A stretch of DNA of 5,458 bases, from assembly GCA_003144275.1 (NCBI GenBank), contig NJBF01000103.1:1-5458 (forward strand), given 5' to 3'. This stretch comes from Candidatus Heimdallarchaeota archaeon B3_Heim (GTDB lineage Archaea > Asgardarchaeota > Heimdallarchaeia > Hodarchaeales > Hodarchaeaceae). The notes under the pieces are model-generated. The model saw nothing but the letters and a program-made list of their open reading frames with translations. It searched no databases and was not told the origin of the DNA. The position numbers and the translations under genes were made by a program. Positions 1 to 5,458 of this stretch are shown here, piece after piece (within the stretch, counting starts at the first letter, position 1; the number at the start of each line of letters is the position of its first letter).

Positions 1-468
1 TTCCACTTGTGGTCTACCCTCTTTAAAACAAATACTGAAAATACTCTCTGCCCTCATAGCTAAAACGTCATCTGATATTTTAGCAAATAATACGTTCTCT
101 AAATTTTCTATCTTAATAATTAAAGGCTCAGAGGTAATTTTTTCTTCTAATGTCCATTGAGAAGCATTTATTTTAAAAATTACTGAGGGTTCTTCTGGAG
201 TTCCAGTAATTATAAATTCTTTTAATTGTTTTACCCTGCTGGTAATTGTTCCAGGGAGAGTTCTACCCACTAATTCTTTTTCTAAATATGCTACTCGCTC
301 AACCAAAGATTTTTCTTGAACTATTCCATAAATAGCCTTCTCTACCTGAGATAAATCTTCAATTAATATTACTTGGGAGACTTCCGCAGCCCAGGAAAAC
401 TGAGCTAACACTGAAGTGCATATAAAAGCTGCTATTAACATAAAAGAAAATAATCTTTTAAATAACAT
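1..468 (-). CDS. Exported hypothetical protein with ~19-aa helical repeats (5' part only, runs off the window start)
   Basis: Absent from the supplied ORF track because no stop lies in the window. Manual translation from ATG at 468 is open for 156 codons: MLFKRLFSFMLIAAFICTSVLAQFSWAAEVSQVILIEDLSQVEKAIYGIVQEKSLVERVAYLEKELVGRTLPGTITSRVKQLKEF...KEGRPQVE. SD-like AGGTGAT at 479-473, 4 nt before the ATG. N-terminus resembles a signal peptide (basic KR, hydrophobic core, small residues). Confidence 0.85.
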   Translation of the reverse strand, partial: MLFKRLFSFMLIAAFICTSVLAQFSWAAEVSQVILIEDLSQVEKAIYGIVQEKSLVERVAYLEKELVGRTLPGTITSRVKQLKEFIITGTPEEPSVIFKINASQWTLEEKITSEPLIIKIENLENVLFAKISDDVLAMRAESIFSICFKEGRPQVE

Positions 469-489
469 TAAGATCACCTGCCTTTTTAA

Positions 490-549
490 TAGTCGTTAGT
501 ATATGGTTAGCGTATAGCACATAGCAAAAAGCGCAAAACGTAAAACTGT
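490..549 (+). repeat. Degenerate heptamer tandem array
   Basis: TAGTCGT TAGTATA (TGGT) TAGCGTA TAGCACA TAGCAAA AAGCGCA AAACGTA AAACTGT: 7-nt periodic units drifting in sequence. Confidence 0.6.
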
Positions 550-607
550 AACTCAAAATTAAAAACCTTTTCCGTATTACTCATTGAGGTATCGCTTGAA
601 GATTTAT

Positions 608-646
608 CCCCCTCACTCTAATCCTCTCCTTCAAAGGGGAAAAGGA
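608..646. repeat. Degenerate pyrimidine/purine REP-like element
   Basis: CCCCCTCACTCTAATCCTCTCCTTCAAAGGGGAAAAGGA is an imperfect hairpin in otherwise AT-rich DNA. From recall it resembles the dispersed CCCTCACCCTAACCCTCTCCC...GGGAGAGGG intergenic repeat; not verified by search. Confidence 0.4.
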
Positions 647-698
647 ATAAACTTAAAACTATTAACTGGATAACTAATATCCTATCGGCTATATATTA

Positions 699-723
699 TT
701 CTGACTTCTGGCTACTGTCTTCT
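699..723 (+). repeat. Short heptamer array
   Basis: TTCTGAC TTCTGGC TACTGTC TTCT. Confidence 0.55.
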
Positions 724-736
724 AAATTCTTTTTTC

Positions 737-771
737 TTCACTATTCACTATTCACTAACGACTAACGACTA
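737..771 (+). repeat. Heptamer tandem array (5 units)
   Basis: TTCACTA x3 followed by ACGACTA x2. 761-773 (ACTAACGACTATT) is the exact reverse complement of 488-500 (AATAGTCGTTAGT). Confidence 0.9.
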
Positions 772-775
772 TTTT

Positions 776-804
776 ATTATAATATTATTCCATGAATTCC
801 GCAA
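776..804 (-). promoter_or_regulatory. Putative sigma70-type promoter for the 1-468 gene
   Basis: Minus strand TTGCGG (804-799), 17-nt spacer, TATAAT (781-776), located just downstream of the OmpM-like gene terminator. Predicted start near 769. Confidence 0.55.
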
Positions 805-828
805 ATGCTTTTCAAAAAAAACACTAAT

Positions 829-864
829 AAAAAAATAGCCCCCGGAATTTCTCCGGAGGCTATT
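829..864 (-). terminator. Rho-independent terminator of the OmpM-like gene
   Basis: Minus-strand AATAGCCTCCGGA-GAAAT-TCCGGGGGCTATT running into a T7 tract (835-829). The single non-Watson-Crick pair is a U:G wobble on this strand. Begins 30 nt after the stop codon. Confidence 0.9.
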
Positions 865-893
865 CCTATTATCTTACTAAGCTAATAATAAAA

Positions 894-2549
894 TTAGAAG
901 CTTACTTCGACTCCAGCTTCGAGAACACTGTCGGTACCAGTGATTTCTAAATCATCCCAATCATTGATGTCATCTTCCCAATCATTGTACTCGAATCTGA
1001 CAAATATATCAGTATTTTCAGCAACAGCATATTCTAACTTAGCTTCTGCACTATACACCGCTGCACCATCAGTATCAACACGGCCTTCCAAGAGAAGTGT
1101 CATATCTTCTTCGAAGTCGTAAATCAAAGTTGCAACACCCATATAATCTCCTGTCAGCATTGCATATTCAGCATGGGCACTGAGAATAAATTCGGTATCT
1201 TCTTCATCGCCCAAAGGCAGATTCACATATTCAGCTTCTATATCAATGCCACCGGTTAATACATCATAAGTGGCACCTACCATTGCTTCTTCTTCAGCGT
1301 CTGCATCTATAATAAAAGCTAATTCAGCACCAATCTCATGAGTTAGATTGATTGCAAAAGCGGCATCCATCTCATAATTCCAGCTTGCTTCAACATCAAT
1401 TTGGGTATCATCGTCCTCATCGGTAAGCGGGAATCCAACGGTTACATCAACTCCCAATAAATCAGCGTCCCAGTCAGAATTTGTAGGAACAAATCCTGGT
1501 TGCACGTAATAAACATCTACATCCAAATTGAAGTCATCATATTCACCAGACAATGACCCTACACCAGCAAAAGCCATAGCAGCACCGTAGAACATAGCTG
1601 CCTCTGCGGCTACTGTAGTGTCATCCTCATCTCCAATATCAAAGGACAAGTCAACACTAGCAGCATAACCGACAGCTAAAAGATCATAGGAAGCTGTAAC
1701 ACCAATAGGAATATCATCATCTCCTGCTTCGAAACCAATATTTAAGATGTAGAAGTCTTCAACATCCATAAATAGGGTCCATGCTCCAAGATCTGAATCA
1801 TCTTCATCCCATGTCCACTGTGCCCAGGCGCCATAAAACTCTTCTTGATAAGTATCATAGGCATAAATTAATCCTAATCCAATGTCCTCGCCATCCAGGT
1901 CAATTTCACCAACTAACAGGTGTAAATCTTCACCATCATGTTCTAACCAAAAATCTGCATCATCAAGGGTAACAGCTTCATTAAGAACATCTATCCATGT
2001 AAGTTCAATGCCAGCATTAGTTGTATCATTGATTTCAACTGCTATGTTTAGTGAGGTTTCGTCTGTGATGGTAGCAGGTGCCATTGCCGGAAGAATGACC
2101 TTTTCATATGTAACTTCAACGCCACCAGAAATAGTAACCGGTTCAAAGAAGGTATCTAATTTGGCAACTGTTGTTTCCAAAGCAGCGATTGCTGCAGTGT
2201 GCGCACCTAAAGCAGCCTCTAAATCAGCAACGGTTACTCCTAAGCTAGCTAATTCGTCGGCAAATTCAATGGCTAATTTCTCTAAGATTGCTACATCATC
2301 AGCAGCAGCAAAGTCCATGCCTTCAACATAGGCCAATGCTTTAGCTACTGCTTCAGCAAATTCGTAACGGGTTAGAGATTTTGCTCCACCAAATGTGCCA
2401 TCAGGATAACCTACGATAACTCCTTTTGCGGCTAAACTTTGAACTGAATCATATGCCCAGTGGTTTAAAGGAACATCTACAAAAGGATTAGCAAGTACTG
2501 GGAGTGCAAAAGCTAATACTAGTACTAATACCAATACTAATTTTTTCAT
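894..2549 (-). CDS. OmpM-like outer-membrane tether/porin: signal peptide + single SLH domain + coiled-coil stalk + C-terminal beta-barrel
   Basis: 551 aa. Signal peptide MKKLVLVLVLVLAFALPVLA. SLH motifs FVDVPLNHWAY, GVIVGYPDGTF, LTRYEFA. Stalk motif LEKLAIEFADELASLGV. Remainder has alternating hydrophobic beta-strand patterns and ends in VLEAGVEVSF (terminal Phe, BAM beta-signal-like). SD AAGGAG 8 nt before the ATG. Confidence 0.85.
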   Translation of the reverse strand: MKKLVLVLVLVLAFALPVLANPFVDVPLNHWAYDSVQSLAAKGVIVGYPDGTFGGAKSLTRYEFAEAVAKALAYVEGMDFAAADDVAILEKLAIEFADELASLGVTVADLEAALGAHTAAIAALETTVAKLDTFFEPVTISGGVEVTYEKVILPAMAPATITDETSLNIAVEINDTTNAGIELTWIDVLNEAVTLDDADFWLEHDGEDLHLLVGEIDLDGEDIGLGLIYAYDTYQEEFYGAWAQWTWDEDDSDLGAWTLFMDVEDFYILNIGFEAGDDDIPIGVTASYDLLAVGYAASVDLSFDIGDEDDTTVAAEAAMFYGAAMAFAGVGSLSGEYDDFNLDVDVYYVQPGFVPTNSDWDADLLGVDVTVGFPLTDEDDDTQIDVEASWNYEMDAAFAINLTHEIGAELAFIIDADAEEEAMVGATYDVLTGGIDIEAEYVNLPLGDEEDTEFILSAHAEYAMLTGDYMGVATLIYDFEEDMTLLLEGRVDTDGAAVYSAEAKLEYAVAENTDIFVRFEYNDWEDDINDWDDLEITGTDSVLEAGVEVSF

Positions 2550-2668
2550 TTTTTTTCTCCTTGGTTTTTTTATATTTCCAGTTAGCTAACCTTTAAGGAA
2601 AATTTATTAATTGAGTATCCAAAGTTCCCTCATCAATATCTTCTCTTTTTAGATTGCTAACCGGTTTT

Positions 2669-2763
2669 TATATCATCTTTACTTAAATTAAAGCAGGTCC
2701 AAGTATTTTTCACCTCCTTTCTACCTACTTTAACCAATCTGAGATGATATACTTTTATATCAT
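2669..2763 (-). promoter_or_regulatory. Putative structured 5' leader element with loop-displayed SD and 4-codon micro-ORF
   Basis: Helices 2751-2742:2678-2669 (10 bp, perfect) and 2733-2723:2698-2688 (11 bp, one G:U). Loop contains AAAGGAGGTGA (2720-2710). TTG GAC CTG CTT TAA at 2702-2688. Competing hairpin 2763-2756:2751-2744. Confidence 0.5.
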
Positions 2764-2782
2764 TCTCCCATACTAAATACAT

Positions 2783-2810
2783 ATACTACATCGATGTTTA
2801 AAAATCCTTC
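2783..2810 (-). promoter_or_regulatory. Possible SigH-like promoter
   Basis: Minus strand GAAGGATTT, 12 nt, GTAGTAT, versus the Bacillus sigmaH consensus RNAGGAWWW-N11-12-RNNGAAT (one mismatch in the -10). Confidence 0.3.
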
Positions 2811-2936
2811 TTTTTTTTGAAAATATTTTAAAAAAATTTAAAAAATTTTCGATATTTTCCCCATGTTCATATTTTATAAGGTATTTTTTATACAAATAAT
2901 TCACCATAATGTTATATATCTATTGTTATTGTTTTT

Positions 2937-2966
2937 ATTATAATTGTTAATGTATTGCAATGTCAA
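2937..2966 (-). promoter_or_regulatory. Consensus sigma70/sigmaA promoter upstream of the OmpM-like gene
   Basis: Minus strand TTGACA (2966-2961), 18-nt spacer, TATAAT (2942-2937): both hexamers are perfect. Implies a leader of about 380 nt. Confidence 0.75.
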
Positions 2967-3039
2967 ATAAATTTTGTATTTCGTATCTCGCGAAGATAAC
3001 AAAAATCGAGAATCAGAATAAATTCAAAATAAAAACTCC

Positions 3040-3062
3040 GTAGGACAGGCGTCTCGCCTGTC
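3040..3062 (+). repeat. GTAG-type REP element, copy 1
   Basis: GTAG + GACAGGCG-TCT-CGCCTGTC (8-bp perfect palindrome directly after the GTAG tetranucleotide). Confidence 0.75.
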
Positions 3063-3067
3063 TACAA

Positions 3068-3091
3068 GGGCACAATTCATTGTGCCCCTAC
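3068..3091 (-). repeat. GTAG-type REP element, copy 2 (different sequence, opposite strand)
   Basis: Minus strand GTAG + GGGCACAAT-GA-ATTGTGCCC (9-bp perfect palindrome), 5 nt from copy 1. Confidence 0.75.
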
Positions 3092-3147
3092 AGTCAGTAC
3101 ATAACTATAATATATTAATAAAGAAGAGATTAATATTGTAATTAATA

Positions 3148-4299
3148 TCAGTCGGAAGTTAGGGGGTTCGAAGAAGAAATAGGGTTAGCTTCCATTCTCA
3201 CTCTCAAGGGACCCGTACTCCAAGTATCATAAATTGAGATTACTGTAACTTTCATTATTGTACCCGATTCTACAATAGTCTTTACTGTATTATATAGATT
3301 AACTGCTGATATGGATCCTACAAAACTGGATTTGGGATCAGGAATGATTCCTCTCCCTACTGCCAAAATATTTACTTTTCTTAAAAGAGTTAAAAGTTCT
3401 TTTTCCACTTCGCCAGGCACTTTAAAACTTTCAATTTCCCATGAAATAATTTCTTCGTCTATTTTAAAGACTAATTTATTCTCCAAGGTTTTAAAATGTG
3501 CTGCTATAGGTTCTCCTTCAACCACGTTTATTGAAGATAAAAGTCTCACTATCATCTCTTTATCACTATCATATATCTTCTGTACTATATCTTCGAATTC
3601 ATTTTGAGCGATAATGAACACCTGATTGGTTCGCTCATCCTTTTTAGCTCCCATGACTAATACTTTATTGGAAGCTTCGTTCAAAAATCTAATTAACTCT
3701 TTCTTTATTTCTTCAATCGGCCTTTGCCCTTGAATAATAGTCAGCGCAATCTGTTCGTCCGACCCAAAAATAACCTCTCCTTCTCTAATCCAGGCAATTC
3801 CAGAGTAAAGAGCTTTTATGGTGGCATTTAATTCTTCTACTTCTTCAGCCAGCTTCTCTTTTTCTTCTATCAAACTTTCCCTAATCATCAACAATTCTTC
3901 TAATTGACCTGTTTTATTTTTTATGTCTTCAGATAATTCCTGATATTTCTCTTCCATTTCCTGTAATTGAGTAGTTTTTTCCTTTAGGTCTTCTTTGGTA
4001 GAGGATAGCTGCATGTTTCTTAACTCTACTTCCCGGGATAAATTGGAAAGTTTTTCCTTTAACTCCTCCATTCCGAATAGGGCGGTTCTAACATCATTAG
4101 AGGAGATAGCAAGTATGGTTACTGTAATAATGGCAATTAAAATACCACTAATTATAGTGATAAATATTGCTGTAGAGTGTGGGCGCAAGCCAAAGATAGT
4201 TACTCTTTTTTTGCCTATTTTAAGGCCTACCCAGTCACCAACAAAAGCTATTAAACCACTGATTATGATAACTGTAAATACTAAAATAAGACTGTACAT
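3148..4299 (-). CDS. DUF3084-family protein (N-terminal transmembrane helices + coiled coil + C-terminal soluble domain)
   Basis: 383 aa. N-terminal GLIAFVGDWVGLKIGKKRVTIFGLRPHSTAIFITIISGILI matches the pattern I recognise for DUF3084. Heptad-rich E/K/L segment at about residues 75-165. SD AAAGGAG at 4316-4310. Confidence 0.8.
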   Translation of the reverse strand: MYSLILVFTVIIISGLIAFVGDWVGLKIGKKRVTIFGLRPHSTAIFITIISGILIAIITVTILAISSNDVRTALFGMEELKEKLSNLSREVELRNMQLSSTKEDLKEKTTQLQEMEEKYQELSEDIKNKTGQLEELLMIRESLIEEKEKLAEEVEELNATIKALYSGIAWIREGEVIFGSDEQIALTIIQGQRPIEEIKKELIRFLNEASNKVLVMGAKKDERTNQVFIIAQNEFEDIVQKIYDSDKEMIVRLLSSINVVEGEPIAAHFKTLENKLVFKIDEEIISWEIESFKVPGEVEKELLTLLRKVNILAVGRGIIPDPKSSFVGSISAVNLYNTVKTIVESGTIMKVTVISIYDTWSTGPLRVRMEANPISSSNPLTSD

Positions 4300-4328
4300 G
4301 TCTTTTGGACTCCTTTCAGTCGTCCGTT

Positions 4329-4368
4329 TAGTTAGTTACTTAGTTAGTTGGTTAACTGGTTAGCTAGT
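4329..4368 (+). repeat. Octamer tandem array A (5 units)
   Basis: TAGTTAGT TACTTAGT TAGTTGGT TAACTGGT TAGCTAGT. Confidence 0.9.
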
Positions 4369-4412
4369 TAAGAATACAAATACAAGAAACATGACAATAC
4401 AATTTACCAATT

Positions 4413-4469
4413 AATTTGGTTAGCTGGTTACTTAGTTAACTGGTTAACCGGATTAACTAGTTAGCGGGT
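4413..4469 (+). repeat. Octamer tandem array B (about 7 units)
   Basis: AATTTGGT TAGCTGGT TACTTAGT TAACTGGT TAACCGGAT TAACTAGT TAGCGGGT. Confidence 0.9.
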
Positions 4470-4515
4470 TAATGTTAGTTCACCAGATTTTCTAACCAAA
4501 AAATACTAAAAATAC

Positions 4516-4935
4516 TTAAAGATACTGTTGGATTTGTTCATTAATTTTTGTTGTTTTTGGGTAAGTTTTTACTTGTGATCTTAAATAAGTAATTAATTTA
4601 TTAATTGACATAGATATTTTCTGTGCATGATTATAAATAGTTTCGAACTCTTCCTTATTAATATAGTTTAGGTCTAAAGAAATGTATAGATCGTTTTGTA
4701 CTTCGGATATCGAAGCTCGAGATATTATTAAAAAATTTATAAATTCTTTTGTTGATCTTCTGTTAAATCCTTCAGCAATATTGGACATGATGGAAACTGA
4801 AGCTCTTCTTATTTGCGAAGTTAAACCATATAATTCTTCTTTTGGGAATCTTTTAGATAAGATATAAATTCTATTAGTAAGTTCTCTCGCTTCCTGCCAA
4901 ATAGTCAGCTCTTCAAATGATTTTACAGTTGGCAT
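4516..4935 (-). CDS. Four helix bundle protein (23S rRNA intervening-sequence protein family, TIGR02436/PF05635-like)
   Basis: 139 aa with family motifs SFEELTIWQEA, FPKEELYGLTSQIRRASVSIMSNIAEG, STKEFINFLIISRASISE. SD-like AAGGGA 7 nt before the ATG. Confidence 0.93.
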   Translation of the reverse strand: MPTVKSFEELTIWQEARELTNRIYILSKRFPKEELYGLTSQIRRASVSIMSNIAEGFNRRSTKEFINFLIISRASISEVQNDLYISLDLNYINKEEFETIYNHAQKISMSINKLITYLRSQVKTYPKTTKINEQIQQYL

Positions 4936-4982
4936 ATGAAGTTCCCTTCATTATATTTCTACTTTATTTCTTTGCAAATTTC

Positions 4983-5013
4983 TAACCAGCTAACTAAGTA
5001 ACCAGCTAACTAA
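4983..5013 (-). repeat. Octamer tandem array C, inverted relative to A and B
   Basis: Plus strand TA ACCAGCTA ACTAAGTA ACCAGCTA ACTAA; its units are exact reverse complements of the TAGCTGGT and TACTTAGT units of array B. Confidence 0.9.
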
Positions 5014-5014
5014 T

Positions 5015-5458
5015 TCACAGATTAAATCTTTCCCCCAGATAGATTTTGCGGGTGATTTCACAATTAGCTACGTGACGGGGAGTTCCTGAAGTCAGTATTT
5101 TTCCATTATGCATAATATAAGCTCTATCGGTAATTTTAAGAGTCTCCCTCACATTATGGTCGGTAACTAATATCCCCAACCCTTTTTCTTTTAGATAAGA
5201 AATTATTTCCTGAATGTCATAAACCGCAATAGGGTCAACTCCGGTAAAGGGTTCGTCAAGCAACATAAAAGAAGGTGAACTGGTTAAAGTTCGGGCTATT
5301 TCTACCCGGCGTCTTTCCCCTCCGGAGAGCATATATCCTTTGTAATCAGCGAGATGGTCTATTTCTAACTCCTTTAATAAAGAATAGCACCTTTCTCTCT
5401 GTTCATCTCTTTTGACTCCCAACGATTCTAAAATTAGAAGGAGATTTTCTTCTACAGT
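5015..5458 (-). CDS. lptB: LPS export ABC transporter ATP-binding protein LptB (3' part, starts outside the window)
   Basis: Frame is open to the window edge (TVEENLLLILESLGVKRDEQ...). ABC signature LSGGERRRVEIAR, Walker B MLLDEPFTGVDPIAV, H-loop GILVTDHNVRETL and C-terminal RKIYLGERFNL are all LptB-typical. Confidence 0.92.
   Translation of the reverse strand, partial: TVEENLLLILESLGVKRDEQRERCYSLLKELEIDHLADYKGYMLSGGERRRVEIARTLTSSPSFMLLDEPFTGVDPIAVYDIQEIISYLKEKGLGILVTDHNVRETLKITDRAYIMHNGKILTSGTPRHVANCEITRKIYLGERFNL

Follow-up and report, generated by a model that had tools for sequence, protein, structure and literature searches.

The leader of an ompM-like porin gene combines two structural modules, domain A and domain B, which are best read together as a control element acting on the RBS of this gene. 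It was found in a stretch of 5,458 nucleotides, further called the window. In domain A, a long stalk displays a decoy Shine–Dalgarno (SD) sequence in its loop, and domain B carries the most conserved hairpin of the leader. Comparison of related leaders from Atribacterota (JS1), Synergistota and diderm Bacillota shows the predicted structure, the complementarity to 16S rRNA, anti-RBS segments that covary with the RBS and the association with ompM-type genes. The regulatory reading that we propose, and that we hold to be about evenly poised between right and wrong, is that a 30S subunit bound to the decoy would unlock the RBS, with domain B serving as a protein binding site. If true, this would add to the modes of translational control one whose ligand is the 30S subunit itself. 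The gene matters because, in diderm Terrabacteria, OmpM serves as the main tether of the outer membrane and as the main porin (PMC10628300).

The Source Contig and the ompM-like Gene

The window spans positions 1–5458, i.e., the whole length, of contig NJBF01000103.1 (C42 in assembly G000). In this host assembly, archaeal RpoA1 was found and bacterial RpoA is absent. No homologue of the window region was present in approximately 40 relatives of the assembly, as the assembly is archaeal, and none of the envelope genes of the window recurs elsewhere in it. The N-terminal part of the ompM-like gene (2549–894) is 73–84% identical to genes of Atribacterota JS1. Taken together, the contig is therefore a JS1 fragment that was mis-binned into an archaeal MAG.

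The gene is ompM-like, with a putative beta-barrel part. This assignment is based on the signal peptide, the SLH domain, the terminal Phe and the relatives in the PDB, the best of which are the SLH-domain porins 8BYS/8BYM and SlpA 7ZGX, matching the N-terminal part only. Features of the gene and its leader are listed in Table 1. Perfect sigma70 boxes, such as those in the window, are also present upstream of approximately 28 JS1 leaders, and a sigH-like gene was found in the JS1 genomes G045, G047 and G048. No terminator-like site is located between the sigma70 promoter (2966–2937) and the ompM gene. Because conserved promoters precede it and no terminator separates it from the gene, we infer from conservation that the element belongs to the transcribed 5′ leader of ompM.

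Other elements were observed around this gene. Directly upstream lies a gene for a DUF3084 coiled-coil membrane protein (3148–4299), and downstream of the latter two neighboring GC-richer, REP-like palindromes are found (3030–3095). Between the lptB-like and DUF3084 genes, there is a gene for a 23S-IVP/bAvd-like four-helix bundle (4516–4935), flanked by short degenerate palindromic repeats (4320–4470, 4980–5015). Their sequence resembles that of the domain B basal stem in the JS1 lineage.

Table 1. Features of the ompM-like gene and its leader in the window.
Feature	Position	Strand	Remarks
Sigma70-type promoter	2937–2966	−	12/12 consensus
SigmaH-like promoter	2783–2810	−	predicted start near 2776; conserved among leaders of JS1 and Sporomusaceae
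Optional 5′ arm competing for the P1 5′ strand	2756–2763	−	above chance in 13/45 Atribacterota leaders
Domain A outer helix P1, 5′ strand	2742–2751	−	26 JS1 leaders: 99.2% of cells paired, 3 pairs with two-sided changes
P1, 3′ strand	2669–2678	−
Domain A inner helix P2, 5′ strand	2724–2734	−	98.6% paired, 2 pairs with two-sided changes
P2, 3′ strand	2687–2697	−	contains the stop of a non-conserved micro-ORF
Decoy SD in the P2 loop	2710–2722	−	13-nt complement of the 16S 3′ tail; near-invariant
Anti-RBS 1 (CUUGG)	2699–2703	−	putative pseudoknot with 2564–2560; includes the UUG of the earlier note
Domain B basal helix P3, 5′ strand	2656–2664	−	84.6% paired, 4 pairs with two-sided changes
P3, 3′ strand	2578–2586	−
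Domain B mid helix P4, purine-rich 5′ strand	2641–2645	−	pairs with and holds anti-RBS 2; 90.7% paired, 3 pairs with two-sided changes
Hairpin B (P5)	2612–2632	−	two G-GNNA-C units form its 13-nt loop; no other part of the leader is as conserved
Anti-RBS 2, P4 3′ strand	2595–2602	−	complementary to the real RBS over 8 nt
Real RBS with constrained 5′ flank (CCAAGGAG)	2557–2564	−
ompM-like gene	894–2549	−	551 aa: signal peptide, SLH domain, stalk, probable beta-barrel, terminal Phe
Intrinsic terminator of ompM	831–867	−

Domain A Displays a Decoy Shine–Dalgarno Sequence

An earlier note on this DNA had described, on the minus (mRNA) strand, an 11-bp inner helix with one U:G pair closing a 24-nt loop, a perfect 10-bp outer helix and a competing 8-nt arm (2763–2756), all of which are present where it had placed them. 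The inner helix is real, but its innermost U-A pair (2723:2698) is not conserved and the helix is better drawn as 2734–2724:2697–2687. Similarly, the loop indeed contains an SD sequence that goes beyond the own RBS of the gene, but the match to 16S rRNA comprises 13 nt (2722–2710) instead of 11. The note had confined the element to 2669–2763, where the helices do lie; it continues, however, up to the start codon. Half of the anatomy, i.e., domain A, was thereby described, while the anti-RBS pairing and a second domain (2664–2578) were missed.

Domain A folds with a predicted energy of −25.8 kcal/mol (z −4.64), and none of 200 shuffled sequences folded equally well. The covariation that the note had put forward as a check is observed, as both P1 and P2 have two-sided changes in 26 JS1 leaders, and homologous leaders keep the SD in the loop. 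In other clades the stalk is also formed, from differing sequence (70 leaders, median z −2.8). RNAalifold returned no pairs on a MAFFT alignment of mixed JS1 and OP9 leaders, which was misaligned; the pair statistics are those of JS1-only and anchored counts. In Negativicutes, the stalk (L075:2802–2911, L085:5784–5893) is interrupted by an internal loop where GAA faces AGUA; this loop resembles a bulged-G (loop E/sarcin-ricin) motif and is not conserved in JS1.

With the sequence of the 16S tail taken from genomes of Atribacterota (JS1 included) and Negativicutes, the predicted duplex of the decoy SD with this tail amounts to −22.1 kcal/mol, vs. −8.3 kcal/mol for the real RBS. The decoy surpasses the real RBS in all 65 leaders compared. 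Moreover, the decoy is nearly constant across leaders and the real RBS is variable, as expected if the partner of the decoy is 16S rRNA. Opening the loop region is predicted to cost a median of 5.6 kcal/mol across leaders and 11.1 kcal/mol in the leader of the window.

The competing hairpin formed with the 5′ arm had been presented as a switch. As a general feature this does not hold, since it exceeds chance in just 13 of the 45 Atribacterota leaders. The arm occurs in two sub-lineages and was lost in sister taxa, so that this hairpin is optional and sporadic.

The Loop Covaries with the RBS

The segment following the decoy, at a median distance of 7 nt, is complementary to the RBS and its 5′ flank in each clade: CUUGG faces CCAAG in the window, CCUUAGG faces CCUAAGG in Negativicutes and a C-run faces a G-run in Synergistota. 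The core columns of this pairing are paired in 42/43, 43/43, 41/43 and 41/43 distinct leaders. Between clades, G-C is replaced by A-U and U-A by G-C. Additionally, compensations within single lineages are found in L023, L019 and L025, as well as in L263 and L320. In total, there are more than 10 different compensated sequence versions. The RBS flank is unable to pair with the bases upstream of the decoy itself, and the covariation therefore marks a pseudoknot between loop and RBS. In line with a constraint that is specific for this gene, a CC flank of the RBS is found in 33 of 35 ompM genes vs. none of 34 other Atribacterota genes.

Cognate pairing between loop and RBS exceeds non-cognate pairing across clades. 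Among 14 Bacillota leaders that had been found via hairpin B alone, cognate pairing was compared with permuted pairing (p = 5e-5; p = 3e-4 for the flank only), and in 24 metagenome leaders found in the same way, from partly overlapping clades, none of 20000 permutations matched the cognate pairing; all of these permutation p-values are overstated, as related leaders are not independent. The Bacillota set adds new versions of the pairing, e.g., L244, L246 and L250. In Synergistota leaders, cognate pairing scores 19.4 vs. 12.1 for shuffled pairs.

There are also leaders with a weak anti-RBS match or none (L024, L045, L062, L232, L264). In the window, the pairing comprises just 5 bp and −7 kcal/mol as a free duplex, the median across leaders being −9.9 kcal/mol, and a weak pairing of the anti-RBS 1 segment with the decoy is also possible. 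When the decoy is blocked in nested folding, the accessibility of the RBS stays the same, although such folding cannot represent pseudoknots. The putative pseudoknot would have to span a stalk of approximately 25 bp with a linker of approximately 13 nt.

Domain B Is the More Widely Conserved Module

Domain B is a long stem-loop (2664–2578) that is more widely conserved than domain A. The stem of its apical hairpin B is paired in 86.9% of cells and has 93 two-sided cells, exceeding every shuffle and every slide. The loop counts 12–13 nt and is a direct repeat of G-GNNA-C, of which the first unit is always GNRA. This twin-loop hairpin was found at 152 distinct sites before porin-type genes, which were partly selected by pattern; the decoy module is also present at 79 of these and domain A is lacking at the other 73. 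It occurs in nearly all ompM-type leaders that were fetched by protein and precedes ompM genes as well as genes for porin-like proteins without an SLH domain. A model of the hairpin matched in 30/41 Atribacterota, 16/41 Synergistota and 24/141 Bacillota genomes, and in Sporomusa all stemmed matches are located upstream of ompM paralogs. The hairpin was not seen at four plasmid-borne SLH genes of Deinococcota and cyanobacteria.

Anti-RBS 2, the second segment complementary to the RBS, tracks the RBS flank and is held paired in the predicted ground fold. It is weak or lost in one JS1 sub-lineage, which keeps the decoy and anti-RBS 1.

Several other pattern matches were set aside. In 201 Synergistota genomes the strict pattern returned mostly noise. 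Viral matches are due to chance, the top ones lying in unrelated, mostly coding contexts and none before a porin, and a 23-nt match on contig C86 lies within a coding frame and is likewise a chance match. A DNA operator is disfavored as an explanation for the repeat of loop B by the covarying flanks with G:U pairs. On one viral contig (L136:846–972), four matches to the loop-B pattern are arranged in tandem with a 27-nt period. In L232, L237 and L248, hairpin B is located approximately 260 nt upstream of a gene for an SLH-less exported protein, with additional conserved-looking sequence in between.

Relation to the SLH Motif

Genome G070, which we take to be that of T. lienii, contains a leader (L113) in which the decoy SD, the anti-RBS and hairpin B follow one another as in the window. 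This leader falls in the region NC_016148.1/613490-613841, which was published as an example of the SLH motif, a riboswitch candidate (Stav et al., 2019; PMC6429828), so that the word "undescribed" in the earlier note is not supported. The SLH gene in G070 begins right at the end of this region and, like the published motif, the leader of the window type is located upstream of SLH-domain genes. For the motif, 80 examples were reported in Synergistaceae and Firmicutes and a second messenger was guessed as ligand, none being identified (PMC6429828). The reported range (Synergistaceae, Negativicutes and "Clostridia") agrees with the range found here. Judged by region and gene context, the ompM leader thus very probably belongs to the SLH motif family.

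Atribacterota are absent from that report, which proposed a small-molecule ligand, and its text contains no 16S-complementary loop, anti-RBS pseudoknot or two separable modules (Stav et al., 2019). A search of Rfam, as had been suggested in the earlier note, was run on the window and five homologous loci and matched no family over the leader. In open-access literature, neither a follow-up of the SLH motif nor a matching mechanism was found. As far as this literature shows, the following is new: the occurrence in Atribacterota and before SLH-less porins, the division of the leader into two modules, the complementarity of the decoy to 16S rRNA and the pseudoknot with its covarying anti-RBS. To this motif, an orphan among riboswitch candidates since 2019, the pairing between loop and RBS gives a concrete mechanism, in which ribosome sensing and a protein site would replace the metabolite. 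The tandem ompM copies of T. lienii (G070:C1:612025 and 613748; L385, L396) have identical leaders over the compared parts, which suggests a recent duplication or conversion.

Proposed Mechanism and Alternatives

In the ribosome-free state, the loop segment would pair with the RBS across domain B, damping initiation. A 30S subunit captured by the far stronger decoy SD would then cover anti-RBS 1 and free the real RBS. Capture appears feasible, since the predicted gain of −22 kcal/mol is well above the median opening cost. A ribosome on a strong SD protects the mRNA up to +16 (PMC5737220) and is therefore large enough to cover the anti-RBS segment. The output of ompM, which encodes a very abundant envelope protein, could in this way track the supply of free ribosomes, and would do so independently of a leader peptide. 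Domain B is most likely the binding site of a candidate protein that would provide a second input via anti-RBS 2; the direct repeat and the simple fold point to a protein site. The full proposal, which has somewhat less than an even chance, is that of a peptide-free switch in which a non-translating 30S subunit on a maximal decoy SD acts as activator by unlocking the RBS pseudoknot, at the ancestral outer-membrane tether gene in three phyla, and in which an RNA-binding protein of a porin regulon reads the twin GNRA/GNNA loop.

The earlier note had proposed a ribosome-loaded stabilizer or switch, of which the switch is also our preferred reading. As a stabilizer, the leader would resemble the STAB-SD, where a ribosome parked upstream shields the mRNA from decay, and the other features would be incidental. 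The B. thuringiensis cry3A (cryIIIA) STAB-SD and the strong SD of B. subtilis hbs share with the decoy a very strong, ribosome-holding SD that needs no start codon (PMC3997798, PMC5737220), and here as well a maximal SD, apart from the translated RBS, is found in the 5′ UTR of a highly expressed gene. The ompM decoy differs in that it lies 150 nt into the leader, in the loop of a structured element and beside a covarying anti-RBS; neither this segment nor domain B is explained by stabilization. Moreover, STAB-SD acts by blocking RNase J (PMC3997798). RNase J is present in Sporomusa and T. lienii, but RNase J (TIGR00649) was found in none of 71 Atribacterota genomes while positive controls were detected, and nearly all leaders of this phylum retain the decoy. 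The STAB-SD mechanism is hence unsupported in this lineage and unlikely overall; a decoy-bound ribosome could nonetheless shield the mRNA from endonucleases as a secondary effect. The same survey indicates that Atribacterota may lack bacterial 5′–3′ exonucleolytic decay. The covariation of loop and RBS would equally fit an activating pseudoknot that brings the decoy-bound 30S subunit beside the start codon, to which the same subunit is handed over. That the pairing often spans the 5′ flank and just part of the SD core agrees with this. However, the path from the decoy over the helix to the AUG measures approximately 12–19 nt, which exceeds normal SD spacing, a duplex of −22 kcal/mol is expected to release slowly, and the pairing in Synergistota covers the entire SD core, which makes hand-over an improbable reading too. 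For the decoy as a split SD that serves the ompM start directly, the path is too long.

A metabolite riboswitch, as proposed for the SLH motif, e.g., for a second messenger of envelope homeostasis (PMC6429828), would have hairpin B or both domains as aptamer and the anti-RBS as expression platform. Conservation across phyla, the strict gene association and the RBS-occluding platform found here fit such a riboswitch. The conserved core, however, is one hairpin loop of 12–13 nt with a direct repeat, which is simple for an aptamer, the conserved bases of domain A are accounted for by pairing with 16S rRNA and RBS, and no riboswitch of Rfam matched, so that we regard this as quite unlikely. Very unlikely is an exchange between RNA segments only, in which the decoy would be no ribosome site but a partner of anti-RBS 2. 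In many leaders this segment could pair with either purine tract, but it covaries with the RBS flank, whereas the decoy remains an unchanging complement of 16S rRNA, it does not read the final GUG of the decoy, and the sub-lineage without it has kept the decoy. Lastly, the UUG at 2702, seven nt downstream of the SD, and the stop ending at 2688 are correctly placed in the earlier note, which saw a micro-ORF here. Initiation at this UUG with termination at the base of the stem could melt P2 and act as an attenuator. Almost every Atribacterota leader has a UUG behind the decoy, and the 4-codon ORF is present in approximately 17 leaders, all of close JS1 relatives. Elsewhere, frame, length and start codon all vary: the ORF counts 1 to approximately 50 codons, in some leaders it is fused to ompM or overlaps it, the spacing ranges from 8 to 14 nt, and a start codon is lacking altogether in 17 of the 70 leaders, UAG or a C-run taking the place of the UUG. 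The UUG is thus present but not a conserved start; it is part of the segment complementary to the real RBS, a pairing that demands it anyway. With neither start codon nor frame conserved, a translated attenuator is highly improbable.

Likeness to Other Leaders

In attenuation of the ermC type, the downstream RBS becomes free when a ribosome occupies an upstream site and thereby masks an anti-SD. The proposed ompM switch would share this logic, but in its leader neither a leader peptide nor a start codon or stalling sequence is conserved, and binding of the 30S subunit would itself be the input. Another long regulated leader of an SLH-barrel gene is the 5′ UTR of slpA in Thermus thermophilus, which reportedly binds a fragment of its own product; the likeness is one of gene type and reported regulation. 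With the sites of CsrA/RsmA, which have GGA in loops, the ompM leader shares several GGA-containing loops near the RBS. The GGA of loop B is not invariant, though, as GGU, GGC and GGG occur as well, and the distributions differ, with CsrA in 22 of 71 Atribacterota genomes vs. hairpin B in 30 of 41.
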